Positions 2,760-48,322 of a stretch of 64,000 nt of DNA are shown here, one piece after another. Origin of the DNA: an uncultured Mycoplasmatota bacterium (GTDB lineage Bacteria > Bacillota_I > Bacilli_A > RF39 > UBA660); contig CAOKET010000003.1 in the NCBI GenBank assembly GCA_948467605.1, forward strand, positions 9,230-73,229. The letters are read 5' to 3'. The notes below the pieces were generated by a model. That model was not told the DNA's origin, ran no database searches, and worked only from the letters and a program-made list of their open reading frames with translations. A program made the translations under genes and the position numbers. Numbering within the stretch: the stretch's first letter is position 1; the number at the start of each line of letters is the position of its first letter.

Positions 2760-3995
2760 ATGGAATATATAGTTGACATATTAAGAGAAAATGATGAAGG
2801 ATTAGGAATTGCTAAAATAGATAATATTACAGTATTTGTAAGTGATGCGATTAAGGGTGAAAGAGTAAAAATAGAAGTTATAGATAAGAAAAAAAATTAC
2901 TTACTAGCAAAACAAAAAGAAATATTAAAAAAATCCTCTGATAGAGTAGATACTCCATGTAAGTATTACTCTATATGTGGTGGATGCGATATAATGCATA
3001 TGAGTCATGATAAACAACTTGATTTTAAATTAAATAGAGTTAGACACATATTTAAAAAATTATATGATAAGGAAGTAAACATAGAAAAAATAGAATCGTT
3101 AAATAGTTTTAATTATAGAAATAAAGTAGTACTTAGAGTAGATAATGATATATTAGGATTTTATAAGCATGGAACAAATGAATTATTTGATTGTAATAAG
3201 TGTATTGTATCTAGTGATAATATAAATAAAACAATAGAAATATTACATAATTTTATAAATAATAATAAAAATCATAATATAAAAGAAGTAATGATAAGAC
3301 AAAACAATGACACTATTGGTAAAGTAATGGTATGTATAGATGATATTAACAAATGTTGGCAAGAAAAATTTATAAAAGAATTATCTAGTTATAAATTTAT
3401 TGAAAGCATTTATATAAATGAAAAATTAGTATATGGAAAAAATAATCTTTTAATAAATATGTTTGACTTGACATTTGAAGTGTCACCTAAATCCTTTTTT
3501 CAAATTAATGAATTGATGACTAAATGCTTATATAGTTATGTACTTGATAATATTGACAATGGTAGTAATGCCCTTGATTTATATTGTGGAACGGGTACTA
3601 TTACATCTATAATATCTAAAAAGTGCAATAAAGTAATAGGAATAGAAGTAATTAAAGATGCAATTTATAATGCTAATAAAAATATATTAAGAAATAATAT
3701 AAAAACAGTAGGATTTATGTGTGGTAAAGTAGAAGATTTAATTGATGATATAAATATTAAAAAACTAGATGTAATAGTAATGGATCCTCCTAGAAGTGGT
3801 AGTGATAAAAAAACATTAAATACTATTTGTAATATACTTCCTAAAAAGATAATTTATATTTCTTGTAATCCAGTTACCTTAGTAAGAGATTTAAAACAAT
3901 TAGATGATTATTATGATATTAAAAATATAAGATTGTTTGATATGTTTCCACAAACTCATCACGTTGAATGTGTATGCGTGTTAAATAAAAGGTAA
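2760..3995 (+). CDS. rlmD: 23S rRNA (uracil-C5)-methyltransferase RlmD/RumA with a TRAM domain and an Fe-S Cys cluster
   Basis: N-terminal TRAM-like domain, then CGGCDIMHM Cys cluster, SAM motif LDLYCGTGTI, and catalytic DPPRSG...FPQTHHVECV at the C-terminus. Confidence 0.85.
   Translation: MEYIVDILRENDEGLGIAKIDNITVFVSDAIKGERVKIEVIDKKKNYLLAKQKEILKKSSDRVDTPCKYYSICGGCDIMHMSHDKQLDFKLNRVRHIFKKLYDKEVNIEKIESLNSFNYRNKVVLRVDNDILGFYKHGTNELFDCNKCIVSSDNINKTIEILHNFINNNKNHNIKEVMIRQNNDTIGKVMVCIDDINKCWQEKFIKELSSYKFIESIYINEKLVYGKNNLLINMFDLTFEVSPKSFFQINELMTKCLYSYVLDNIDNGSNALDLYCGTGTITSIISKKCNKVIGIEVIKDAIYNANKNILRNNIKTVGFMCGKVEDLIDDINIKKLDVIVMDPPRSGSDKKTLNTICNILPKKIIYISCNPVTLVRDLKQLDDYYDIKNIRLFDMFPQTHHVECVCVLNKR
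3960..3992 (+). repeat. Direct repeat, copy 1 (actual 3' end of rlmD): tcatcacgttgaatgtgtatgcgtgttaaat
   Basis: It repeats at 5190-5222 with few mismatches. Copy 2 is in frame as H-V-E-Y-V-C-V-L-N-V-stop, i.e. a displaced rlmD C-terminus. Confidence 0.7.
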
Positions 3996-4139
3996 AACCT
4001 TATAGATAAAGGAAAAGCGGGCTATTCAGTTGAGAACAAAAAATGGTAAAAAACGAGTAAATTATTGATATTTTTCCTGATTTTTGAAAAAAATATTGTG
4101 GAGGTTGTCTGTGGAGAATATGTTCCCTAAAACCACTAT

Positions 4140-4170
4140 AACTGGTATGAGTGTATAATTAAAATTATAA
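4140..4170 (+). promoter_or_regulatory. Candidate sigma-A promoter with extended -10 (tgtgtataat) in front of the first ORF6N gene
   Basis: gagTGtgTATAATt sits about 25 nt upstream of the RBS GGAGG and the ATG at 4187. Confidence 0.4.
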
Positions 4171-4186
4171 ATGGAGGTTTTAGGTT

Positions 4187-5062
4187 ATGAATGAATTATT
4201 AGTAAAAGAAAATATAAAAATTGAAGATATGATTTTTGAAATAAGAGGAAAGCAAGTTATTTTCTCATCAGATGTTGCAAAGTTATATAAAACAGAAACA
4301 AGAATTATAAATCAAACGATTAAAAGAAATATTATGAGATTTCCTGAAACATTTTGTTTTCAACTAACTATGGAAGAGGTAATAAACTTGAGATCACAAT
4401 CTGTGACCTCAAGTTTAAGGAATGAAATAGTACATGGTGGAATAAGATATTTACCGTATGTTTTAACTGAACAAGGAATAATGATGTTATCTGGGCTTCT
4501 TAAAAGTGATGTTGCTGCCAAAGTAAATGTTCAAATTATTGACGCTTTTGTTGCTATGAGAAAATTTATTTCAAGTACAATGGTAAATCAAAGTTTTATA
4601 AATAATTTAGTTTATAAGCATGATGAAGAAATCAAGTTACTAAAAGATTCTTTTGATAAATTACAAGAAAAGGAAAAAAACAATGCAATATTCTTTGATG
4701 GACAAATTTATGATGCTTATTCATTACTATTAGATATTTTAAATAGTGCAACAAAAGAAATAATTATTATTGATAATTATGCTGGTAAAGAATTATTAGA
4801 TATTTTAAAAGAAATAAATGTTAATATAATAATTTATTCTGTAAATATGAATGAAACATTAATCAAAAAATATAAAAGCCAATACAATAATGTTGAATTA
4901 GTATTTAATAATAGATTTCATGATAGATTTATTATTATAGACAACAAATATATATATCACTGTGGTAGTAGTTTTAAAGATTTAGGAAAGAAGTGTTTTG
5001 CCATTAATAAAATAGAAAGCAACAAAATTTTAAATGGTGTTTTAGATGAAATTAGAAAGTAG
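4187..5062 (+). CDS. ORF6N (KilA-N-related) DNA-binding domain protein fused to a conserved C-terminal domain of unknown function (paralog 1)
   Basis: The N-terminus reads FEIRGKQV...SDVAKLY...NQTIKRNIMRFPETFCFQLTMEE...LPYVLTEQGIMMLSG, the ORF6N signature as I recall it. The C-terminal half carries IIIIDNYAGKELLD...FHDRFIIID...GSSFKDLGKKCFAIN, shared by all three paralogs. Confidence 0.75.
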   Translation: MNELLVKENIKIEDMIFEIRGKQVIFSSDVAKLYKTETRIINQTIKRNIMRFPETFCFQLTMEEVINLRSQSVTSSLRNEIVHGGIRYLPYVLTEQGIMMLSGLLKSDVAAKVNVQIIDAFVAMRKFISSTMVNQSFINNLVYKHDEEIKLLKDSFDKLQEKEKNNAIFFDGQIYDAYSLLLDILNSATKEIIIIDNYAGKELLDILKEINVNIIIYSVNMNETLIKKYKSQYNNVELVFNNRFHDRFIIIDNKYIYHCGSSFKDLGKKCFAINKIESNKILNGVLDEIRK

Positions 5063-5189
5063 TATATACTATAATTAATAACTACTATATATTCATAATA
5101 AACATTATATTTATATTGTTTGTGTATTACGACATAGTCAGTTGTAAACAAACATATAAAAGTCAACTATTAATAATACACAAACTTAT

Positions 5190-5222
5190 CATGTGGAATA
5201 TGTATGCGTGTTAAATGTGTGA
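5190..5222 (+). repeat. Direct repeat, copy 2: displaced remnant of the rlmD 3' end (candidate att scar)
   Basis: catgtggaatatgtatgcgtgttaaatgtgtga matches 3960-3992. Confidence 0.7.
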
Positions 5223-5278
5223 TAAAACTTTATATGATAGGAACAGAGAAACTGTTGTATAATATAGATTAATATTTA

Positions 5279-5731
5279 ATGGAGGATAATATGGAAGATT
5301 TAAAAATAAGTATTGAAAAAGAAAATAATGATTTTTTTAGAAAATGGATTATAGAAGAATGGAAACACCATAATACAGTTGATTCGATATATCAACTAAA
5401 AATAATAAAACCAGAAGACTTAACTTTTCAAAAAAATGAAGAATATTATAAAATTATATGCAATGATGAAATGGTTGGATTTTTTGGAATAAAAAATTAT
5501 GAAAAAGAACTATATCTATATAGATTTTTTATTGATGAAAAATATCGAAATAAAGGAATTGGAACAATAGTATTAGGAAAGATTATTGATATAGCAAAAG
5601 AACAAAATAAGGATATGACATTAGAAGTAATTGGAGAGAATATTGCAAGGGATTTGTATGAAAGATTAGGATTTAAAACTCATTATAGAAAGATGGTATT
5701 AAAAATCAATGACAATATATATGAAAATTAG
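5279..5731 (+). CDS. GNAT family N-acetyltransferase
   Basis: Motif A reads ...DEKYRNKGIGTIVLGKIIDIAKE..., followed by ...YERLGFK.... Length is 150 aa. Confidence 0.75.
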   Translation: MEDNMEDLKISIEKENNDFFRKWIIEEWKHHNTVDSIYQLKIIKPEDLTFQKNEEYYKIICNDEMVGFFGIKNYEKELYLYRFFIDEKYRNKGIGTIVLGKIIDIAKEQNKDMTLEVIGENIARDLYERLGFKTHYRKMVLKINDNIYEN

Positions 5732-5775
5732 TAAAAATATGTATGATATAGCCAGTTTGATTGTAATATAAAATA

Positions 5776-6294
5776 ATGAATATGAGGAGAAAGTTTATGA
5801 ATATTAGAAGGAAAAAAATAACAGACTGTGAGGTATGGGTTGACATTAATATTAAAAGTTGGAATGATAATTTAAAAGGAATTGTATCTGATAGAGTATT
5901 AAAAATAATTTCAGATAATAGAGATTCTAGGATTGAAAGAGATATTAACAATTTTAAAATAGATGATTGGAATTATGTTTTAGAAGAAAATGATAATGTT
6001 GTTGGGATACTAAAAATAAAACAATCAGACAGAAAAGATTATGAAAATTGTGCTGAAGTGCAAGTTTTATATTTATATACTAATCAAAAAGGAAAGGGAT
6101 ATGGTAAGTGCTTGATTAATAAAGCGTTTGAAGTCTTAAAAGATAAAGGATATAAAAAGGTTGTTATTGGTTGTCTTGAAGGTAATCCTTCTAATGAGTT
6201 CTATAAACATATTGGAGGCAAATTTATAAGGCAAGAACCTTGGGATATTTTTGGCGAGCATTATGTAGAGAATATATATGAATACAATATATAA
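5776..6294 (+). CDS. GNAT family N-acetyltransferase (the start could be the downstream Met at 5797)
   Basis: ...YTNQKGKGYGKCLINKAFEVLKDKGYKKVVIGCLEGNPSNEFYKHIGG... is a typical GNAT motif A/B. Confidence 0.65.
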   Translation: MNMRRKFMNIRRKKITDCEVWVDINIKSWNDNLKGIVSDRVLKIISDNRDSRIERDINNFKIDDWNYVLEENDNVVGILKIKQSDRKDYENCAEVQVLYLYTNQKGKGYGKCLINKAFEVLKDKGYKKVVIGCLEGNPSNEFYKHIGGKFIRQEPWDIFGEHYVENIYEYNI

Positions 6295-6375
6295 TAGTTA
6301 TAATTTATAAAAAGTATTTATAAGAAAAAAACATATGTTAAGATATATATGAGATAAATATATAATAAGAATTTA

Positions 6376-6560
6376 AAACTAATTGAAATAGAATCTCCTA
6401 TTTGATAAAATAAAGAAGTATTAATTAACTTGCCATGTATTGATACTTTTACAATTTAGACGATAATTTATATTTTTAGGCAAGGAAAATATATCTATTC
6501 GGGATATACCTATATATTAAGGGTATATCTTTTTTTATTTAGTGGAGGGATGATAATAAT
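6376..6560 (+). repeat. ~185 bp leader repeat, copy A (upstream of ORF6N paralog 2), containing a hairpin plus T-run
   Basis: By eye about 90-95% identical to 7461-7633. It contains GATATACC-N11-GGTATATC followed by TTTTTTT, about 20 nt before the RBS. Confidence 0.75.
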
Positions 6561-7454
6561 ATGAATGAAATTGTTGTAAATGAAAAAGAAAATATTAGTA
6601 ATAAGATTTATGAAATAAGGGGAATTCATGTAATATTAGATAGTGATTTAGCAATTCTTTATAAGTGCAATAACGGAACAAAAGATATAAATAAGGCGGT
6701 AAAAAGAAATATTAATAGATTTCCTGATGATTTTTATTTTGAATTGACTAAAGAAGAAGTAAAAATGTTAACTTCAAGGTTCCATTTTGGAACCATGAAC
6801 AAATCAAATAATTTACGTGGATATAATTTAAAATATTTACCCCATGCATTTACAGAGCAAGGAGTTGCTATGCTTGCATCAGTATTACATACAAGTATAG
6901 CAGAAGAAGTAAGTATAAATATAATGAGAACATTTGTAGCAATGAGAAAATATATATCAAATGATTTATATAAAAACAATAATATACTAATAAATCATGA
7001 GAATAGATTATTAAAATTAGAGGAAACATTTGATAAGATGCAAGTAAATAAAAAAATAAGTACAATATTTTACAATGGTCAAATATATGATGCCTATTCG
7101 ATATTAATGAGCATATTAAATAGTGCAAAAGAGGAAATTATTATAATAGATAATTATGCGGGAAAAGAACTTTTAGATGTATTAAAGAATATTGATAAAA
7201 AGATATTAATAATATCAAAAAATATAGATGATATATTAATAAAAAAGTATAAAGAACAATATAGCAATGTAGAATTTAAAAAACTTGATATTTTTCATGA
7301 TAGGTTTATAATAATAGATAGAAAAGTGTTATATAATTTTGGTACATCTTTAAAAGATTTAGGTAAAAAGTGTTTTGCGATAAATGAAATGGAGTCTTGT
7401 GAAATATTAGATGTTTTATTGAAAAAAATATTAGATAGAGATGGCCGCTTTTAA
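6561..7454 (+). CDS. ORF6N domain fusion protein (paralog 2)
   Basis: The N-terminus reads ...YEIRGIHVILDSDLAILYK...NKAVKRNINRFPDDFYFELTKEE...LPHAFTEQGVAMLAS.... The 3' ~455 bp (6941-7394) is nearly identical to 8017-8468. Confidence 0.75.
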   Translation: MNEIVVNEKENISNKIYEIRGIHVILDSDLAILYKCNNGTKDINKAVKRNINRFPDDFYFELTKEEVKMLTSRFHFGTMNKSNNLRGYNLKYLPHAFTEQGVAMLASVLHTSIAEEVSINIMRTFVAMRKYISNDLYKNNNILINHENRLLKLEETFDKMQVNKKISTIFYNGQIYDAYSILMSILNSAKEEIIIIDNYAGKELLDVLKNIDKKILIISKNIDDILIKKYKEQYSNVEFKKLDIFHDRFIIIDRKVLYNFGTSLKDLGKKCFAINEMESCEILDVLLKKILDRDGRF

Positions 7455-7460
7455 CAAAAA

Positions 7461-7633
7461 AAACTAATTGAAATAGAATCTCTTTTTTGATAAAATAAAG
7501 AAGTATTAATTAACTTGCCATGTGTTGATACTTTTACAATTTAGACGATAATTTATATTTTTAGGCAGGAAAAATATATCTATTCGGGGTATACCTATAT
7601 ATTAAAGGTATATCTTTTTTTATTTAAGGAAGG
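7461..7633 (+). repeat. Leader repeat, copy B (upstream of ORF6N paralog 3)
   Basis: Near-identical to 6376-6560, with the same hairpin (GGTATACC...GGTATATC) and T-run. Confidence 0.75.
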
Positions 7634-7642
7634 ATGATGAAA

Positions 7643-8515
7643 ATGAATGCAATTATTATAGATGAAAAAGAAAATATTAGTAGTAGAATTTATCAAATAA
7701 GAGGAGTACAAGTGATGTTATCTTCTGATATTGCTAAGTTATACGAAGTTGAAACAAAAGTATTAAATCAAACAATAAAAAGAAATATTAATAGATTTCC
7801 TGAAACATTTTGTTTTCAGTTAACAAAAGAAGAGATAATCAATCTATCTTTAAGGTCACAATTTGTGACCTTAAACAGTAAAGATAATATGAAAGGCCAA
7901 CATTATAAATATTTACCTTATGTTTTAACTGAACAGGGTATAATGATGTTATCTGGATTATTAAAAAGTGAAATTGCAGCTAAAGTTAATATTCAAATTA
8001 TTGAAGCATTTGTAACAATGAGAAAATATATATCAAATGATTTATATAAAAATAATAATATACTAATAAATCATGAGAATAGATTATTAAAACTAGAGGA
8101 AACATTTGATAAGATGCAAGTAAATAAAAAAATAAGTACAATATTCTATAATGGTCAAATATATGATGCATATTCAATATTAATAAGTATCTTAAATAAT
8201 GCAAAAAAAGAAATAATTATAATAGACAACTATGCGGGAAAAGAACTTTTAGATGTATTAAAGAATATTGATAAAAAGATATTAATAATATCAAAAAATA
8301 TAGATGATATATTAATAAAAAAGTATAAAGAACAATATAGCAATGTAGAATTTAAAAAACTTGATATTTTTCATGATAGGTTTATAATAATAGATAGAAA
8401 AGTGTTATATAATTTTGGTACATCTTTAAAAGATTTAGGTAAAAAGTGTTTTGCAATAAATGAAATGGAATGTGATAGTATATTAATCAGCATATTAGAA
8501 AAATTAGATGATTAG
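7643..8515 (+). CDS. ORF6N domain fusion protein (paralog 3; the ORF track starts at 7634, but the ATG at 7643 has proper RBS spacing)
   Basis: The N-terminal module resembles paralog 1 (...RFPETFCFQLTKEE...LPYVLTEQGIMMLSGLLKS...). The C-terminal half is nearly identical to paralog 2 at the DNA level, so the gene is mosaic. Confidence 0.75.
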   Translation: MNAIIIDEKENISSRIYQIRGVQVMLSSDIAKLYEVETKVLNQTIKRNINRFPETFCFQLTKEEIINLSLRSQFVTLNSKDNMKGQHYKYLPYVLTEQGIMMLSGLLKSEIAAKVNIQIIEAFVTMRKYISNDLYKNNNILINHENRLLKLEETFDKMQVNKKISTIFYNGQIYDAYSILISILNNAKKEIIIIDNYAGKELLDVLKNIDKKILIISKNIDDILIKKYKEQYSNVEFKKLDIFHDRFIIIDRKVLYNFGTSLKDLGKKCFAINEMECDSILISILEKLDD

Positions 8516-8545
8516 GTTATAAAAAACTTGTAAGGTGGATTTGTT

Positions 8546-9223
8546 ATGAAAGATATTAAAAAGGTAACAGCAATAATTTTGGCTTCAGGAAATAGTACAA
8601 GATTTGGGAAAAATAGGAATAAAAACTTTGAAATAATAGATGGGAAAAGTGTATTAGTATATAGTTTAAATGAATTTGATAAGAATAAATATATAGATAA
8701 TATAGTAATTGCATGTAAACAATCAGAAATTAAAGAAGTTAAAAACATAATAGGAAATGAGAAACTCTCCAAGCACATAAATATAGTTGTAGGAGGTAAT
8801 TCCAGAAAAGAATCGGTATATAATTGCTTAAAAAATACAAACTCTGATATTGTAGTTATACATGATGGTGCAAGGCCTTTAATTAAACAAGAATATATTA
8901 ATAAATGTGTTGAAAATATTAGTGAAATTAAAGGGGTTACTATTGGTGTAAAATCAAAAGATACAATAAAAATAACCGATGAAAATAACATTGTTATTGG
9001 AACAACTAATAGAAGTAATACATGGATAATTCAAACACCACAGGCATTTGATAGAAAAATTTTGTTACAAGCACACGAGAAATATAAAGGTGATGTAACG
9101 GATGACTGTATGTTGCTTGAAGAATATGGTCATAAAGTTAAAATACTTGAAGGAGATTATACTAACGTAAAAATTACTACATATGAGGATTTAGAAATTA
9201 TAAGAGAATATTTAAAAAAATAG
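8546..9223 (+). CDS. ispD: 2-C-methyl-D-erythritol 4-phosphate cytidylyltransferase
   Basis: The N-terminus VTAIILASGNSTRFG is the IspD signature. Length 225 aa. Confidence 0.85.
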   Translation: MKDIKKVTAIILASGNSTRFGKNRNKNFEIIDGKSVLVYSLNEFDKNKYIDNIVIACKQSEIKEVKNIIGNEKLSKHINIVVGGNSRKESVYNCLKNTNSDIVVIHDGARPLIKQEYINKCVENISEIKGVTIGVKSKDTIKITDENNIVIGTTNRSNTWIIQTPQAFDRKILLQAHEKYKGDVTDDCMLLEEYGHKVKILEGDYTNVKITTYEDLEIIREYLKK

Positions 9224-41936: not shown

Positions 41937-43124
41937 TTGAAAAACTTTAATGTATTATTTACCTTAAAAATACTAAAAAATATACTTTGGAACTTTTTAG
42001 ATAGTTTCTTTATACTTTATTTTTTAGAAATTTCATATAATAATATTTTTACATTAGGTATATATAAATTAATATATATAACTGTATTATATATTGTTAT
42101 ATTTATATTTAGAAATATATCTAAAAGTAAAAAAAGAATATATTTACTTAAAATAGGTATAATATTTAAATTTATATATTTTTTATTAATATTATTATTA
42201 AAAGAACAAATAGTTAAATATATAATTATTTTAGGAATTATATATGGAGTAGCAGAGGGACTATATTTTTCTATTTATGATGTATTTGAATCAGAAGGAA
42301 TAAATAATAAAGATAGAAATAAATTTTCTGGTTATTATGTTTTTATAAAATCTATTATTTCAATGATATTTCCATTAATATTTGGAGCATTAATAAGTAA
42401 AGAGGGGTTTAATACTTGTATTTTATTAGTACTTACTATTGTAATACTAATGATAATTATGTCATTTTTATATAAAGATGTATTTTTTTATAATGATAAA
42501 AAAACTAATTTAAAACAATACATTAAATTAATAAATAATAATCCATTAATTAAAAGAGTATATAAAATATATATATTTTATGGACTTACATATTCATCAG
42601 GGGCATTATCTAGTATAGTAACACTTTTTATATTAAAAATATTTAATAATAGTTTTAAACTAGGAATATTTACATCAATATTTAGTATTATTACTTGTAT
42701 AATAGGAATACTATTTTCAAAGAAAATAAATAAATACAAATACAATAAATATATTGGTATATCAATGAGTTTTAACATTGTAACATTTTTATTAATGGTA
42801 TTTACATGTAATTATATAACAGTTATATTATTTTACCTTTTTCAAACTATATCAAAAACTTTACTAGGACTTATAAATGATAACACAGTAGCAAACATAT
42901 CTAACATGAAAATAATAAAAGAAAATTATAAAATAGAGTATTTTCTCGGTTGTGAAACTGCATTATTTACTGGTAGATTTATTAGTTATTGTATTTTTAT
43001 AACTATGTCATTTTTTAAAGATTATATAATGTTCTTCGTTATATTATTTATATCATTTTTAATTATACTAACTATTCAGTCAATAAAATTGGTAAAAGAA
43101 TTTAATTATATTGACATTGATTAA
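41937..43124 (+). CDS. Polytopic membrane protein, putative MFS-type transporter
   Basis: About 12 hydrophobic segments. Length 395 aa. Confidence 0.45.
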   Translation: MKNFNVLFTLKILKNILWNFLDSFFILYFLEISYNNIFTLGIYKLIYITVLYIVIFIFRNISKSKKRIYLLKIGIIFKFIYFLLILLLKEQIVKYIIILGIIYGVAEGLYFSIYDVFESEGINNKDRNKFSGYYVFIKSIISMIFPLIFGALISKEGFNTCILLVLTIVILMIIMSFLYKDVFFYNDKKTNLKQYIKLINNNPLIKRVYKIYIFYGLTYSSGALSSIVTLFILKIFNNSFKLGIFTSIFSIITCIIGILFSKKINKYKYNKYIGISMSFNIVTFLLMVFTCNYITVILFYLFQTISKTLLGLINDNTVANISNMKIIKENYKIEYFLGCETALFTGRFISYCIFITMSFFKDYIMFFVILFISFLIILTIQSIKLVKEFNYIDID

Positions 43125-43364
43125 TAACAGATTTTAGTATGAATTGATAGTTACTATAAGGATAAGTGAGTAATAACTATTATTATAGGTATTGCTAAAT
43201 TATTAAAAAGTTTAATATATTAATATATATATTTTTAAAAATATTAATAAAAAATAAGTTTATAAATGAAAAAAACTATGACGAATTCTTTTAGTCATAG
43301 GTCTTATATACTAAATTTATAACAGTTACATACGTACTGTGAAACTTATTTTAAATATATGAAT

Positions 43365-43688
43365 TTATATTTTAAAGTAAGAACCATAATTTCTTTCTGC
43401 TTCACTTTGTAAGGATTCTGCATCATCTTTAATTGCTTGAACAATTCTTTCTTTAGTCCAAATATTTTTTTCGCTTAAGAGTTCTTTTCCACTAACGTAT
43501 ATATTTATCAACGGTACTTTTAAAGAATTCAATGTCATAACAATAAATTTTTGCATTTCTGTTGTTTGTTCCGCTCTAACAAAAAAATCAAAACCAAGAT
43601 AATGAGGACCACTACAACGAATATCTACTGGATCATTATTAACACAATCAACACATATCTTTGAACATTCTATTAATTTATCACTCAT
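43365..43688 (-). CDS. Small Cys-containing hypothetical protein
   Basis: A CxxC-containing N-terminus (CSKICVDCVNNDP). It faintly resembles YuzD-like DUF1462 proteins. Low confidence. Confidence 0.35.
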   Translation of the reverse strand: MSDKLIECSKICVDCVNNDPVDIRCSGPHYLGFDFFVRAEQTTEMQKFIVMTLNSLKVPLINIYVSGKELLSEKNIWTKERIVQAIKDDAESLQSEAERNYGSYFKI

Positions 43689-44398
43689 ACATGAAAACCT
43701 TCCCTTAAAATTTGTATGAAGTTTATTATATATTAATTTTTAATTTTGTCAATTATCTTTTTAACTTTAATGTTAGTATTTAAAAATAGTATAAAAAGTG
43801 CGTTATTAAATATTAAAAATAAAATATTATTTAAAATATAGATTTTAAAATAATTTCTGTAAATTAATGCATTATAGGCAATTATAATTTAAAAAATTTA
43901 GAGGAGAATTATTATTTTAGAAATTACAATTAGTGAAAGTGAGAAAAAATTACTAGAAAACAGTAGTTTAGAAAATGTATTTTTATTTTACATTTCATTA
44001 AGTTATGAAAATATCAAAAGTTCATTAACTTATAATAAGGTAGTTGGAGATGTAACTGTATCTATTAATGAACAAATAAAAAGTTAGAAGATAAGAATTT
44101 TAAAGAGATATGTATATATTATTCATATTCAGATAATGAATATATGTGTAATTTACATTTTTTGATTTTATGATAAAAATATTGATTCCTAATTGTAGAA
44201 TGTACGTTGAAAAGGTTTTGTGGTTTTTATTTAGAATTCTTGCATAGATATTTTAATTAAACAAAATATTATTGAAATATGTAAAATAAAATGGGAAAAA
44301 ATATGCTAGGTGAGGTTAAAGAACAAAAATATATAAGAATCATTAAAGTATAAAATATTATACATGATATAATAGTTTTATAGGAAGGTGATTAATAC

Positions 44399-45010
44399 AT
44401 GAGAATTAAACATCATAAACAAATTGTAGATATGTTGTATAAAGAATGGGACTTAGGTAAAAAATCATCAAAGGCAAAAGGGAAAACATGTGCATGGATA
44501 TATTGGTTTGAAATACTAAATGAAGTAGAAGAAGTAATTACAGAAAAAAAAGATAATAATATTATAGGTATATGTGCTTATTCTAAATGTGGTTCTAAAA
44601 AACATATTATTAGAAAAAAGATATACGAATTGTTAAAAAATCTATTAATTTCTAGTTTTCTTGTGAAGAATAAAGAAAACTTATATAAATATAATAATGA
44701 CTATGATTATTTGCCAAAAGAATTAGAAAACTATTTTGATGGTGAAATAACAATCCTTATTGTAGATAAGCAATATAGAGGTAAACAAATAGGTAAAAAA
44801 CTTTTAAATAAAACATTTGAAATTGCAAAGAATGATAATATTAATAATCTCCAAATATCAACTGATGAATCATGTAATTATAAATTCTATGAAAGTTTAG
44901 GTTGCACAAAAATATATGAAAAAACAATTCCAAATAGAGAAGTAGATAAATGTGGCAATAAAACAACAGAAGAGGGATATATATATGAGAAAAAATTAAG
45001 AAATATATAA
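44399..45010 (+). CDS. GNAT family N-acetyltransferase
   Basis: ...VDKQYRGKQIGKKLLNKTFEIAK... Confidence 0.65.
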   Translation: MRIKHHKQIVDMLYKEWDLGKKSSKAKGKTCAWIYWFEILNEVEEVITEKKDNNIIGICAYSKCGSKKHIIRKKIYELLKNLLISSFLVKNKENLYKYNNDYDYLPKELENYFDGEITILIVDKQYRGKQIGKKLLNKTFEIAKNDNINNLQISTDESCNYKFYESLGCTKIYEKTIPNREVDKCGNKTTEEGYIYEKKLRNI

Positions 45011-45083
45011 AATATGTAAGTTATAAATTGACTTACTATATAAATAAATGATATACTAAACCAACTAAAGGAGAGGACAAGAG

Positions 45084-45746
45084 TTGAGTTTAATAGAAAA
45101 TATTCCGTATAAAAAAAGTTTTATAGTAAAAGATGATTTATCATTATTAGGCAAAAGTCAAACAATATCTATATCAAAATATTTATGTGGAGATATTTAT
45201 GACCGTTATTATTTAAGAGTAAATACAAAAGACGATAATAATAATCCTTTAGATCAAGGGTATCTTTATTTTTATCTAGACTTTGAAAAAAGAAAAAGCG
45301 AATTTATTGGAGTAAAAATATCTCAAGAATATCGAAATTGTGGACTTGCATCTTTACTTATTTCTGTTTGGATACAATTTTGTTTAGATGAAGGATTTTT
45401 AAATTTACAAACAATTTCTAAACAAAGAAAACCATTTGTATTATATCTTTTAAAAAAGTATGAATTTGAGTTAAGAAATTTAACTACTTATCGAACATCA
45501 ACAAGAACAGTTCATATATGTAAAAAAGAAAATGAAGATAGAAAATGTATTATGTTTGAAAATAAACAAGAAGAGAATCGTTTTAGAAATAGCAATATTA
45601 TGAAAACTGATAATTATAGAATTATTGGAAAAGAAGAACAAAATATTAGTATTTTAGATAGTGTTGTTCTATATACGCCATATTTTTTACAAGATCAAGA
45701 AAAAGCATATCAAAAATCTTTACAGTTTTATAATAGTAAAAGATAA
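45084..45746 (+). CDS. GNAT-like acetyltransferase (TTG start)
   Basis: ...ISQEYRNCGLASLLISVWIQFCLDEGF... Confidence 0.45.
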   Translation: MSLIENIPYKKSFIVKDDLSLLGKSQTISISKYLCGDIYDRYYLRVNTKDDNNNPLDQGYLYFYLDFEKRKSEFIGVKISQEYRNCGLASLLISVWIQFCLDEGFLNLQTISKQRKPFVLYLLKKYEFELRNLTTYRTSTRTVHICKKENEDRKCIMFENKQEENRFRNSNIMKTDNYRIIGKEEQNISILDSVVLYTPYFLQDQEKAYQKSLQFYNSKR

Positions 45747-45817
45747 AACATTTATTAAAAAATATATGTTATACTTATAGTGTATTTGTATAAAAAAACT
45801 AAAAATGAGGTAAGTAT

Positions 45818-46606
45818 ATGTATAATATTTATGATGAATTAAATAAAATGATAGATTATATAGAAGAACATATATTAGAAAATATTGATATAAAAGTATT
45901 AACAAAAATCACTGGTTTAAATATAAATACTTTAAAAAGTGTTTTTAGTTGTCTAACTGGTATAAGTATAACAGATTACATAAGATTAAGAAGATTGACT
46001 CTTTCAGTAAGTGATATATTAAAAGGAAAAAGTATTACTGAAGTATCATATAAATACTTATATAATTCACCATCTAGTTATAATAGAGCATTTAAAAAAT
46101 ACGAAGGAATAACACCAAAAGAAATAAAGAGTAATACTAGTAAATTAAAACTATTTAATAAGATTATTTTTAAAGAAAATATAAAAAATTATAATATAGA
46201 TTATAAAATATACAAAAATAAAGAGTTTAATTTATATGGTATTTCAAAAAAAATAGATTTTGAAAGTAGAACTAAAGATATACCAGAGTTTTGGAAAGAA
46301 GTAAAAAATAAATATGAGGAATTTAATTCTAATAAACGATATGGCTTTTTGGATGAATCAAATAATAATGAAATATTATATTTTTGCTTGCTTGAAAAAA
46401 AATTTAAAAGTTCTAAAAAAATAAACATACCAAAATGTAATTATTTTGCTATTAAAATAGATGATTTTAAATCACAAAGTATAATTAATAATATAAATAA
46501 ATGCTTAGATGAATATATAAAGTCCCTTAATTATAAAATATTAGATATGGCTAATATTGAAATATATTATGATAATTATATTGAAATCTTAATACCCATT
46601 ACTTGA
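45818..46606 (+). CDS. AraC-family HTH regulator with a C-terminal GyrI-like effector-binding domain (Rob/BmrR-like)
   Basis: AraC HTH ...ITDYIRLRRLTL...SYNRAFKKYEGITPKEIK, then a ~150 aa GyrI-like C-terminus. Confidence 0.65.
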   Translation: MYNIYDELNKMIDYIEEHILENIDIKVLTKITGLNINTLKSVFSCLTGISITDYIRLRRLTLSVSDILKGKSITEVSYKYLYNSPSSYNRAFKKYEGITPKEIKSNTSKLKLFNKIIFKENIKNYNIDYKIYKNKEFNLYGISKKIDFESRTKDIPEFWKEVKNKYEEFNSNKRYGFLDESNNNEILYFCLLEKKFKSSKKINIPKCNYFAIKIDDFKSQSIINNINKCLDEYIKSLNYKILDMANIEIYYDNYIEILIPIT

Positions 46607-46639
46607 TATTTTTTAATGTAATAATATCAAGTTTTTTTA
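46601..46639 (+). terminator. Terminator after the AraC-like gene
   Basis: ACTTGATATT...AATATCAAGT followed by T7. Confidence 0.5.
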
Positions 46640-46666
46640 TACATTCTTTGGGATAATTATTTAGGG

Positions 46667-48322
46667 ATGTATATGATTAAAGAGTATATAAATATATTTA
46701 AAAATTATTATAAGTTAATTAGTGATGATAAAAGAAAACTTATTCCATATTATATAGGATATTTTCTAGAAGAAATAATTGAATTAATAATACCTATATA
46801 TATTGCAAAAATAACTGAAGATTTAACTAATTCATTATTTATTTCAAGCTTAATTAGTATTGCAATGTATTTCTTTTTAAAAAATGTTAATATTTTAATA
46901 TCATATTTTATTAAAAATACATACACAAACTTCTTTAAAAATAATTATGTTACATTATATAAAAAAATAGTAAAAGAAATATATAACTTTGATGAAGAGT
47001 ATAAGAAGAAGTTTTCAACTGGTAGAATGCTTAACAGTTTGACAAGTGATATTATTAATGTTGGAGAAATGGCTGATGATATATTAACAGTTATTTTGAA
47101 TATTTTAAAAAGCATAATAGTTATAATTTACTTTTTTAAAATTAATATATATCTTTTAATATTTATAATTTTAATTGATATTATTTATATTAAAAGAAGT
47201 AACTATTTAAATAATATGACAATAAAATATTTAAAAAAACAAGTAAATGAAAATGATAAATTAATTGGATTAATTAGTCAAACCATAACTGGCTTAAAAG
47301 ATATTCAAACATTAGGAATATCAAATACAATTAATGATAAATACAATACAATTTATAGATTGTGGAAAAATATGTATAGTAGTAAAAGAAAATACCAAGT
47401 ACATAAACAAACAGTATTAAAATGCCTGTTAATACTAGTTAAAACATCAATATATTTTTTACTAGCATATTTAGTTATGAATAAAGAAATGACTATAGGA
47501 GTAATGTTAATTATAATCTCATATTTTGATTCACTATTTCAATCAAGTGAAAATATTATGCAATCACTAGAAAACATTAAAGAACAAAATGTTTCAGTAA
47601 ATAGAATAAAAGAAATACTAGAATATAATACAGTTAAAGAATATGAAATAAAAAGTTTAAAAAATATAAATGGATTAATAAATTTTAATAACGTAAGTTT
47701 TTCATACAATGATGAAAGATTCTTAGAAAATTTAGAGTTTGTTATTAAACCAAATAAAATAACTGTAATAATAGGTGCAAATGGTACAGGAAAAACTACA
47801 ATAACTAACTTAATATTGCGTTTGTACCAACCAACTAGTGGAGAAATACTACTAGATGGAATAGATATTAATAGTATTGATAAAAAAACATATTTAAAAG
47901 AAATATCAATATTAAACCAAGAAACTTATCTTTTTAACTTAAGTATTAGACAAAACTTTAATTTAATTAATAAAGATATAAATAAACAACAAGAAATATG
48001 TAAGTTTGTTGGAATAGATAAATTTATAAAAAAGTTACCTAAGGGTTATGATACGGTAATAGGCGAGAATTGTAATAATATATCAGGTGGTCAAAAAAAA
48101 TTAATTTCACTAGCAAGAACTTTATTAAAAGGTTCCAAAATATTAATACTAGATGAAGCAACATCTTCTCTTGATACTAATATGACAAAAAATTTTATAA
48201 GTATTTTAAAAAAATTAAAGAAAAATCATACTGTTATTGTAATAACACATAAAAATGCAATTATTGATATAGCAGATGAAATTATAGCAATTGACAAAAG
48301 TAAAAGTAATGTGATTAAATAA
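46667..48322 (+). CDS. ABC exporter (fused permease and ATPase, half-transporter)
   Basis: Six N-terminal TM segments, Walker A GANGTGKTT, signature ISGGQKKLISLAR, Walker B ILILDEATS. Confidence 0.8.
   Translation: MYMIKEYINIFKNYYKLISDDKRKLIPYYIGYFLEEIIELIIPIYIAKITEDLTNSLFISSLISIAMYFFLKNVNILISYFIKNTYTNFFKNNYVTLYKKIVKEIYNFDEEYKKKFSTGRMLNSLTSDIINVGEMADDILTVILNILKSIIVIIYFFKINIYLLIFIILIDIIYIKRSNYLNNMTIKYLKKQVNENDKLIGLISQTITGLKDIQTLGISNTINDKYNTIYRLWKNMYSSKRKYQVHKQTVLKCLLILVKTSIYFLLAYLVMNKEMTIGVMLIIISYFDSLFQSSENIMQSLENIKEQNVSVNRIKEILEYNTVKEYEIKSLKNINGLINFNNVSFSYNDERFLENLEFVIKPNKITVIIGANGTGKTTITNLILRLYQPTSGEILLDGIDINSIDKKTYLKEISILNQETYLFNLSIRQNFNLINKDINKQQEICKFVGIDKFIKKLPKGYDTVIGENCNNISGGQKKLISLARTLLKGSKILILDEATSSLDTNMTKNFISILKKLKKNHTVIVITHKNAIIDIADEIIAIDKSKSNVIK

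Follow-up and report, generated by a model that had tools for sequence, protein, structure and literature searches.

Three paralogous genes of an uncultured Mycoplasmatota bacterium encode small proteins that join an ORF6N head, which binds DNA, to a C-terminal domain that had no annotation. They lie on a 64,000-nucleotide stretch of contig CAOKET010000003.1 (positions 9,230 to 73,229 of the forward strand), which is called the window here. The predicted structure of the C-terminal domain gives it a phospholipase D (PLD) fold, and its motif fits the HDR (MIT_C-like) clade of that fold. New here are this assignment of an unannotated domain, a layout like that of TrmBL2, and a recurrent mosaicism among the paralogs. 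By sequence comparison, the genes are members of an already catalogued candidate anti-phage family, PDC-S05. What might such proteins do? We infer, tentatively and with a little less than an even chance of being right, that they are dimeric HDR phosphodiesterases that would cut DNA held by the ORF6N heads.

Three proteins with a common layout

All three genes are on the forward strand. Paralog 1 (4187..5062) encodes 291 amino acids, paralog 2 (6561..7454) 297, and paralog 3 (7634..8515) 293. Each product consists of an ORF6N head, a long helix, and an HDR-type PLD-like domain. At the amino acid level, paralog 2 is 52% and paralog 3 is 59% identical to paralog 1. The head is readily recognized, with scores of 98.8, 99.2, and 105.4 bits for the three paralogs against a Pfam ORF6N (PF10543) cut-off of 27.8. 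In paralog 1 it spans residues 15-102 (4229..4492; E=2.2e-28). No family in Pfam (2025 copy) or NCBIfam (release 20) scores above its cut-off in the C-terminal half of the paralogs.

To briefly describe the rest of paralog 1, the linker helix takes up residues 108-159 (4508..4663) in the full-length AlphaFold model, and the PLD-fold domain follows at residues 165-290 (4679..5056; E=7e-50 with the family hidden Markov model). Within this domain, the IIIIDNY block (residues 192-198; 4760..4780) contains the end of strand 2 (residues 191-195) and then Asp196. The HKD-like motif, HDRFIIID (residues 245-252; 4919..4942), supplies His245, Arg247, and Asp252, and 3' of it a GSS...GKKCF block (4964..4999) contains the conserved Gly260, Ser262, Gly267, and Lys269. 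The PLD-like domain of paralog 2 is encoded by nucleotides 7059-7430, with HDRFIIID at 7296-7319, and that of paralog 3 by nucleotides 8135-8506, with HDRFIIID at 8372-8395.

A preliminary description of this DNA had already recognized three paralogs with a common C-terminal domain, and the open reading frames are present as it described. The domain that they share has about 125 amino acids. The conserved blocks that it listed are there too: IIIIDNY and FHDRFIIID-x7-G(S/T)S are invariant among the three copies, and the spacing H-x-R-x4-D-x7-G-S/T is exact in all of them. Its placement of the domain at 4600-5062 needs trimming. That interval does cover the domain, together with the end of the linker helix, and the globular part starts at about residue 165 (nucleotide 4679).

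A predicted PLD fold

Residues 127-291 were modeled with AlphaFold2 from an alignment of 70 sequences. The model has a mean predicted local distance difference test score (pLDDT) of 78, with values of 84-95 over the globular part. Its elements run strand-helix-strand-helix-strand-helix, followed by four strands and a final helix. When the model was compared with the PDB by Foldseek, 78 structures matched at E<=1e-3, and the top 50 were all PLD-superfamily structures. NucT ranked first (6ehi; E=7.6e-8, query TM-score 0.57), and the matches also included TrmBL2 (5bpi; E=1.4e-7), PLD2 (E ~2e-6), FAM83 (E ~5e-6), Zucchini (4ggj; E=5.2e-6), MITD1 (4a5z; E=3.9e-5), PPK1, PLD3, and TrmB (3qph and 2f5t). 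In the viral structure library BFVD, only PLD-family proteins were matched, all at 15% identity or less. The PLD fold had been a guess in the preliminary description, and it withstood the structure search of the predicted model.

What about the sequence itself? Among 48 domain sequences, weak matches to Pfam PLDc_2 were found in 16 (best, 1.6e-5), to MIT_C in 6, and to PLDc in 2. The window domain scores 16.3 bits against PLDc_2 (PF13091; E=0.0092), below the cut-off of 27, and 14.4 bits against MIT_C (PF16565), below the cut-off of 25. PLDc_2 is reached at E<=1e-3 by 3 of 83 diverse full-length homologs, and no meaningful match came from a phmmer search of PDB sequences with the complete protein as query.

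An HDR motif in place of HKD

The catalytic HKD motif of the superfamily reads HxK(x)4D(x)6G(S/T)xN. The family described here has instead HxR(x)4D(x)7G(S/A/T)S followed by a hydrophobic residue, present once per chain. The His and Asp are retained, while the Lys, the spacing, and the Asn of GSxN are changed. In an hhalign comparison of the family profile with the single sequence of Salmonella Nuc (query near-identical to 1byr_A; probability 18%), HDR is aligned on HDK, with the canonical His, Lys, and Asp positions of Nuc corresponding to His245, Arg247, and Asp252.

Which PLD proteins are the closest relatives? The preliminary description had looked to Nuc, BfiI, and Zucchini, and this part of it needs revision: by motif, the closest are those of the MIT_C-like HDR clade. 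Members of that clade have a conserved acidic residue, Asp or Glu, following strand 2, and HDR in front of strand 5 (PMC12065111). Both features are found in the window domain, in which D196 follows strand 2 (residues 65-69 of the model) and HDR precedes strand 5 (residues 122-125 of the model). Among the solved structures found, human MITD1 (query 100% identical to 2ymb_A) is the only one with the same HDR motif. The alignment of the family with MITD1 covers helix 1 and places IIIDNY on WIEDPY and FHDRF on IHDRE, and in both proteins seven residues lead up to the next Gly. The hhalign probability is 24% with the single MITD1 sequence and 67.5% (E=5e-5) with a narrow vertebrate MIT_C profile. 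By these marks the domain fits the MIT_C-like HDR clade, while staying below the Pfam cut-offs given above.

HDR-type PLD domains have been described in defense systems. One of them, PB-PLD1, fills the effector slot of Menshen NsnC, and others occur in BrxL C termini; they have been proposed to be enzymes with a nuclease role, without an assay and with a call for further study (PMC12065111). The clade as a whole (PF16565; MITD1, PDB 2YMB/4A5Z; PB-PLD1; BrxL) shares with the window domain its fold, the acidic residue after strand 2 (D196 here, E in the WIEDPY of MITD1), the HDR motif, and the x4 and x7 spacing to Gly. Like PB-PLD1, the window domain sits at the variable C-terminal position of a defense-associated protein. 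It differs in its partners, being carried on ORF6N, RhuM-N, or Bro-N heads rather than on MIT, inactive PIN, or AAA+ modules. It also differs after the Gly, where (A/S)S-hydrophobic-KD takes the place of RGLD.

The nucleases with a single HKD motif, Nuc (1BYR), NucT (6EHI), Zucchini (4GGJ), and BfiI, also have one PLD-fold domain of similar size per chain, and as mentioned, NucT is the top structural match and the HDK of Nuc aligns with HDR. They differ in having Lys in the catalytic site where the window family has Arg, in a spacing of x6 rather than x7, in the Asn of GSxN, and in lacking the extra invariant Asp after strand 2. BfiI is comparable in coupling a PLD nuclease to a separate DNA-binding domain, with the domain order reversed relative to the window proteins.

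The motif is widespread and strongly kept. A search with the C-terminal 152 residues retrieved 2,680 proteins at E<=1e-3, and a full scan of 1.84 billion cluster representatives gave 3,104 representative clusters at E<=1e-3 and 924 at E<=1e-10. HDR-x4-D is kept in 116 of 118 close homologs with a readable motif and in 131 of 150 cluster representatives (50% identity); the remainder of the latter are mostly fragments, plus single HDK, HDH, or HDY variants. In both sets, position 247 is nearly always Arg, with Lys in very few exceptions. An alignment of 83 sequences, spanning homologs down to 24% identity, shows at least 90% conservation of G172, D176, A177, A188, D196, Y198, L204, and Y233 in the N-terminal part of the domain and of H245, D246, R247, D252, Y257, G260, S262, G267, K269, and F271 in the motif part. 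In a domain-only alignment of 48 sequences, D196, H245, D246, D252, G260, S262, and G267 are invariant. Judged from these alignments, conservation of HDR-x4-D is far above chance. The preliminary description had suggested checking whether the H and D residues are conserved in homologs, and they proved to be nearly invariant.

One further sequence match, the sole signal obtained from NCBIfam, concerns the same segment. Residues 240-270 of paralog 1, which include HDRFIIID, have a weak local match to NCBIfam NF040700 (VPA1262_N_dom), as do the corresponding segments of the other two paralogs (~21 bits against a cut-off of 80; model positions 416-453; E ~1e-4). The N-terminal domain of the VPA1262 family may contain the same HDR-type PLD module.

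A candidate defense family with exchangeable parts

PDC-S05 is a candidate single-gene defense family that was defined by genomic association. Its PADLOC model PDLC04869 matches paralogs 1, 2, and 3 with E values of 2.1e-90, 4.2e-85, and 4.5e-89, and the match is end to end, taking in model positions 2-301 of 306 and residues 7-289 of paralog 1. PDC-S05 is heterogeneous, with about 40 models grouped mainly by N-terminal head. PDLC04869 combines ORF6N with the HDR-PLD domain, and PDLC04879 combines a RhuM-type head with the same C-terminal module. Many other PDC-S05 and PDC-S23 models (312-346 positions) share the head and have different C termini.

The heads vary as well. Among 83 representatives with the HDR-PLD module, the head is ORF6N in 51, RhuM (the first ~70 model positions) in 12, and Bro-N in 2; there are also Bro-N plus ORF6N variants, and several representatives have two ORF6N domains. 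By sequence, related DNA-binding heads are combined with several alternative C-terminal modules, of which this is one, and such exchange of heads and C termini is the pattern of a swappable effector.

Is there experimental support for the family? In E. coli B, a PDC-S05 representative from a cold-seep metagenome reduced the plating of T7 and T5 about 1,000-fold and that of T4 about 10-fold (10.1101/2024.09.26.614923). RhuM-like proteins have also been proposed as toxins within restriction-modification loci (PMC3710099). The suggestion in the preliminary description that the genes have a role in defense or conflict has gained support from the end-to-end PDC-S05 match and from the toxin-antitoxin, methylase, and Septu-like genes that neighbor the domain on plasmids (described below).

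Mosaic tandem paralogs

Paralogs 2 and 3 are alike in some parts and quite different in others. Sliding-window comparison of their DNA gives 94% identity over a 174-nucleotide upstream region (6375..6548 for paralog 2, repeated at 7460-7633 for paralog 3), 52-78% over the ORF6N-coding stretch (~6613-6918 versus ~7695-7994), and 83-100%, with 240 nucleotides at 100%, over the block that encodes the helix and PLD domain (6940..7395 versus 8016-8471), all on the forward strand. The break in identity falls at the end of the ORF6N domain. In amino acids, the head of paralog 3 is closer to that of paralog 1 (64%) than to that of paralog 2 (52%), while its C-terminal domain is 90% identical to that of paralog 2 and 61% identical to that of paralog 1.

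The same pattern recurs in tandem arrays of at least five other genomes (related loci L011, L013, L022, L029, L033, and L061), in which C-terminal domains are 90-99% and heads 52-65% identical. The pair at L076 deviates, with heads at 49% and C-terminal domains at 35%. How could such mosaics arise? The heads are too divergent for a recent duplication, and recombination is therefore called for, either as conversion of the 3' half or as replacement of a 5' cassette. The sequences indicate that recombination homogenizes one module or swaps the other. The combination of a nearly identical helix and PLD domain with divergent heads in tandem copies is noted here for the first time.

A 10-bp hairpin followed by seven U lies inside the 174-nucleotide repeat at 6500-6535 and again at 7585-7620, ending about 25 nucleotides before the start codons of paralogs 2 and 3. 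Shuffled sequence folds about as stably (z about -1.1), and Rfam has no match to the hairpin. Possible roles are termination of upstream transcription and action as a leader element. Rfam and terminator scans of 3900-8700 found nothing.

How the proteins may work

Our preferred reading, DNA cleavage by a dimeric HDR phosphodiesterase, would work as follows. The helix and PLD-like domains would pair two chains, and the two HDR half-sites would form one phosphodiesterase center, an arrangement known from the single-HKD nucleases Nuc, NucT, Zucchini, and BfiI. The nucleophile would be His245, with Arg247 in place of the canonical Lys. The composite center would cut DNA recognized by the ORF6N (KilA-N-like) heads and so restrict phage or other incoming DNA. 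A nearly identical helix and PLD domain carried behind differing heads would put several DNA specificities, possibly with mixed dimers, on one effector chassis.

An extension of this reading, which we regard as unlikely, is that arrays of ORF6N-PLD(HDR) genes are a combinatorial, restriction-like system that needs no methylase, with homodimers and heterodimers cutting different combinations of sites. In that extension, the shared helix and PLD domain, kept nearly identical by recombination, would supply the dimer interface and half of the active site, and the divergent ORF6N heads would recognize the DNA. Were the extension true, the HDR clade would be catalytic, implying an unrecognized enzymatic activity for BrxL C termini, Menshen PB-PLD1, and human MITD1.

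Several points weigh against DNA cleavage by these proteins. The motif has Arg for Lys, x7 for x6, and a hydrophobic residue for the Asn of GSxN, and as we read the hhalign alignment, Lys269 appears to lie opposite the Glu that in Nuc supports the His. We know of no enzymatic activity for any HDR-clade domain. The PLD-like domain of MITD1 is described as mediating membrane association (PMC11962514), and its enzymatic activity is treated as an open hypothesis (PMC12065111). The PDC-S05 gene that was tested against phages is described only as having a Virulence_RhuM domain (10.1101/2024.09.26.614923) and may be without the HDR domain. When 1,242 open reading frames from 79 related loci and the window were clustered, no gene for a partner, an immunity protein, or a methylase proved to be conserved, and the neighbors are housekeeping genes. 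With no immunity or methylase partner, it is therefore unexplained how such a nuclease would spare the DNA of its own cell. Finally, the full-length protein is structurally closest to TrmBL2, a DNA-binding protein that has a non-catalytic PLD-like domain and the same order of head, helix, and PLD.

This last point leads to the strongest alternative, a non-catalytic regulator or chromatin-like protein of the TrmB/TrmBL2 type, which we consider possible, if doubtful. In such a protein, ORF6N would bind DNA and the helix and PLD-like domain would only oligomerize. The conserved polar pocket would bind a phosphate-bearing ligand that tunes DNA binding, and the paralogs would be transcription factors with different operators. 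The full-length model (mean pLDDT, 72.5) consists of ORF6N at residues 12-105, an uninterrupted 52-residue helix at 108-159, and the PLD-like domain at 177-290. Its best PDB matches are TrmBL2 chains, over 172-308 aligned columns, followed by NucT, Zucchini, TrmB, and MITD1. With only the domain as query, TrmBL2 and TrmB are again high in the ranking, and when the family profile was compared with the PDB, they were the PLD-fold chains among the matches (E of 0.1-0.2, with an unrelated glycosyltransferase at 0.026). By analogy with this architecture, the linker helix is presumed to mediate dimerization. One homolog is named “sugar-specific transcriptional regulator TrmB” by its source, PHROG families that match the head are annotated as anti-repressors or regulators, and a harmless regulator would be expected to have housekeeping neighbors and no immunity or partner gene. 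The degraded canonical HKD features, and the membrane-associating description of MITD1, which has the same HDR and for which no enzymatic role is reported (PMC11962514), fit here as well.

The likeness to TrmB and TrmBL2 (PDB 5BOX, 5BPD, 3QPH, and 2F5T) is one of three-part layout, with a DNA-binding head, a long helix, and a PLD-like domain. It is limited to the helix and PLD-like part in that their head is a winged helix and the one here is ORF6N; a Pfam scan of the paralogs gave no match to a TrmB-type helix-turn-helix or winged-helix domain. The sugar-binding subdomain of the TrmB family is also absent from the window proteins. At the position aligned with HDR, TrmBL2 reads FDL, without the His and Arg, whereas in the family here H, R, D, S, and K hardly vary. 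Furthermore, the module is interchangeable with other C termini on the same heads in a defense-candidate family, as effectors are, and several related loci contain disrupted copies; such disruption is less typical of a core regulator than of a costly conflict gene.

A second alternative, to which we give a rather low probability, is that the domain is an active PLD phosphodiesterase or phosphotransferase whose substrate is not the DNA backbone. Possible substrates are nucleotide signals, phospholipid head groups, and protein-DNA adducts (the last as for Tdp1), and the ORF6N head would only localize or regulate the enzyme. Lipid enzymes, PPK1, PLD3, and Tdp1 are among the PLD-superfamily matches, the description of MITD1, the nearest relative by motif, as mediating membrane association (PMC11962514) would suit such a role, and the remodeled active site (Arg, with the extra Asp196 and Lys269) suggests a changed substrate. 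Against this, the domain is nearly always found on DNA-binding heads (51 of 83 with ORF6N, 12 with RhuM-N, and 2 with Bro-N), and the published proposal for the HDR clade is a nuclease (PMC12065111).

A third explanation, that the genes are decaying remnants of prophage anti-repressor (Ant/Rha-type) genes with no present function for the host, is very improbable: PHROG anti-repressor families do match paralog 1, in the ORF6N part only, and some related loci have split or frameshifted copies, but all three window copies are intact with invariant motifs, the scanned flanking products include no phage genes, the C-terminal domain occurs in few phage records (see below), and more than 3,100 clusters are strongly conserved.

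Genomic neighborhood and distribution

The closest relatives are from gut metagenome-assembled genomes labeled as uncultured Mycoplasma, Tenericutes, or Bacilli (best, 94%), and the G+C content of the window, 23-26%, is consistent with these relatives. In two 2-kb bins within 42001-48000, the G+C content is 18-19%, versus 21-31% elsewhere in the window. The loci of related genomes discussed here were found by a profile scan with an 8-sequence alignment.

Genes flanking the paralogs encode housekeeping products by Pfam scan: an OGG glycosylase, a PGA_cap protein, a RumA-type methyltransferase, IspD, a metallophosphoesterase, and a NUDIX protein. Two GNAT acetyltransferase genes lie between the paralogs, at 5279-5731 and 5776-6294. 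GNAT genes are also found beside or between the copies at L015, L022, L034, and L085, and one GNAT cluster is near copies in 7 related loci. We attribute the recurrence of rumA and GNAT neighbors to synteny between related genomes, although for GNAT it could also mark a functional link. Copy number differs from genome to genome, with a single copy directly after rumA at L003 and L004, a split copy at L007 (6051-6927), and three copies with a GNAT gene among them at L015 and L022.

Is the locus an integration hotspot, as the preliminary description had it? This idea is weakly supported. The window has no tRNA gene, which leaves a tRNA-linked integration site unsupported, and among the eight flanking products scanned against Pfam there is neither an integrase nor a phage gene; as mentioned, the flanks are housekeeping genes. 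In its favor are the varying copy number and a 56-nucleotide repeat of the 3' end of the rumA-like gene (repeat family D7), which brackets paralog 1. The repeat is at 5179..5234 on the forward strand, is 82% identical to its source at 3949-4004, and encloses with it a 1.2-kb segment that contains this one gene. The pair looks like the footprint of an insertion or a segmental duplication. It is absent from L003, L004, and L007.

Beyond these relatives, the C-terminal domain was found in 4 of 50,697 phage genome records, all of them unclassified fecal contigs, and a phage origin of the domain was rejected on this count. Plasmids are a richer source, with 59 carrying the domain, mainly from Bacteroides, Parabacteroides, and Legionella, and with annotations of “RhuM family protein” or “ORF6N domain-containing protein.” Their neighboring genes include MazEF, DNA methylases, a recombinase, SLOG/PRTase genes, YfjI, and DUF3644. 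On a plasmid of B. thetaiotaomicron (L082), the copy is directly 5' of genes for an AAA ATPase and a “retron system putative HNH endonuclease.” Bacteroidales plasmids of ~98 kb (L089, Bacteroides pMMCAT-type) have what is probably a pseudogene: a copy with a RhuM head and HDR-PLD domain whose match falls into two pieces and for which no gene is listed. The L082 plasmid has an intact gene at the equivalent position.

Disrupted copies take another form at L085 (5706-6579) and L086, where a frameshift falls at a run of six G in the conserved FTEQG codons and a further degraded copy lies upstream. The frameshifted product or near-identical variants are found on up to 19 contigs. Homopolymer phase variation was considered as the source of homologs with shortened N termini and set aside as a general feature of the family, the G6 run being confined to the L085/L086 lineage and found neither at other loci nor in the window genes.

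Significance

In 2025 it was asked, for Menshen, BREX BrxL, and human MITD1, whether HDR-clade domains are enzymes (PMC12065111). The family described here, whose small, single-gene proteins form more than 3,100 clusters and nearly always have DNA-binding heads, is probably the simplest system in which to address this question. Divergent heads on a nearly identical helix and PLD domain point to modular switching of specificity in a candidate defense gene. If the domain is inert, the family would be a widespread bacterial counterpart of the archaeal TrmBL2 layout, of more modest interest; if the HDR site is catalytic, that interest would rise considerably.

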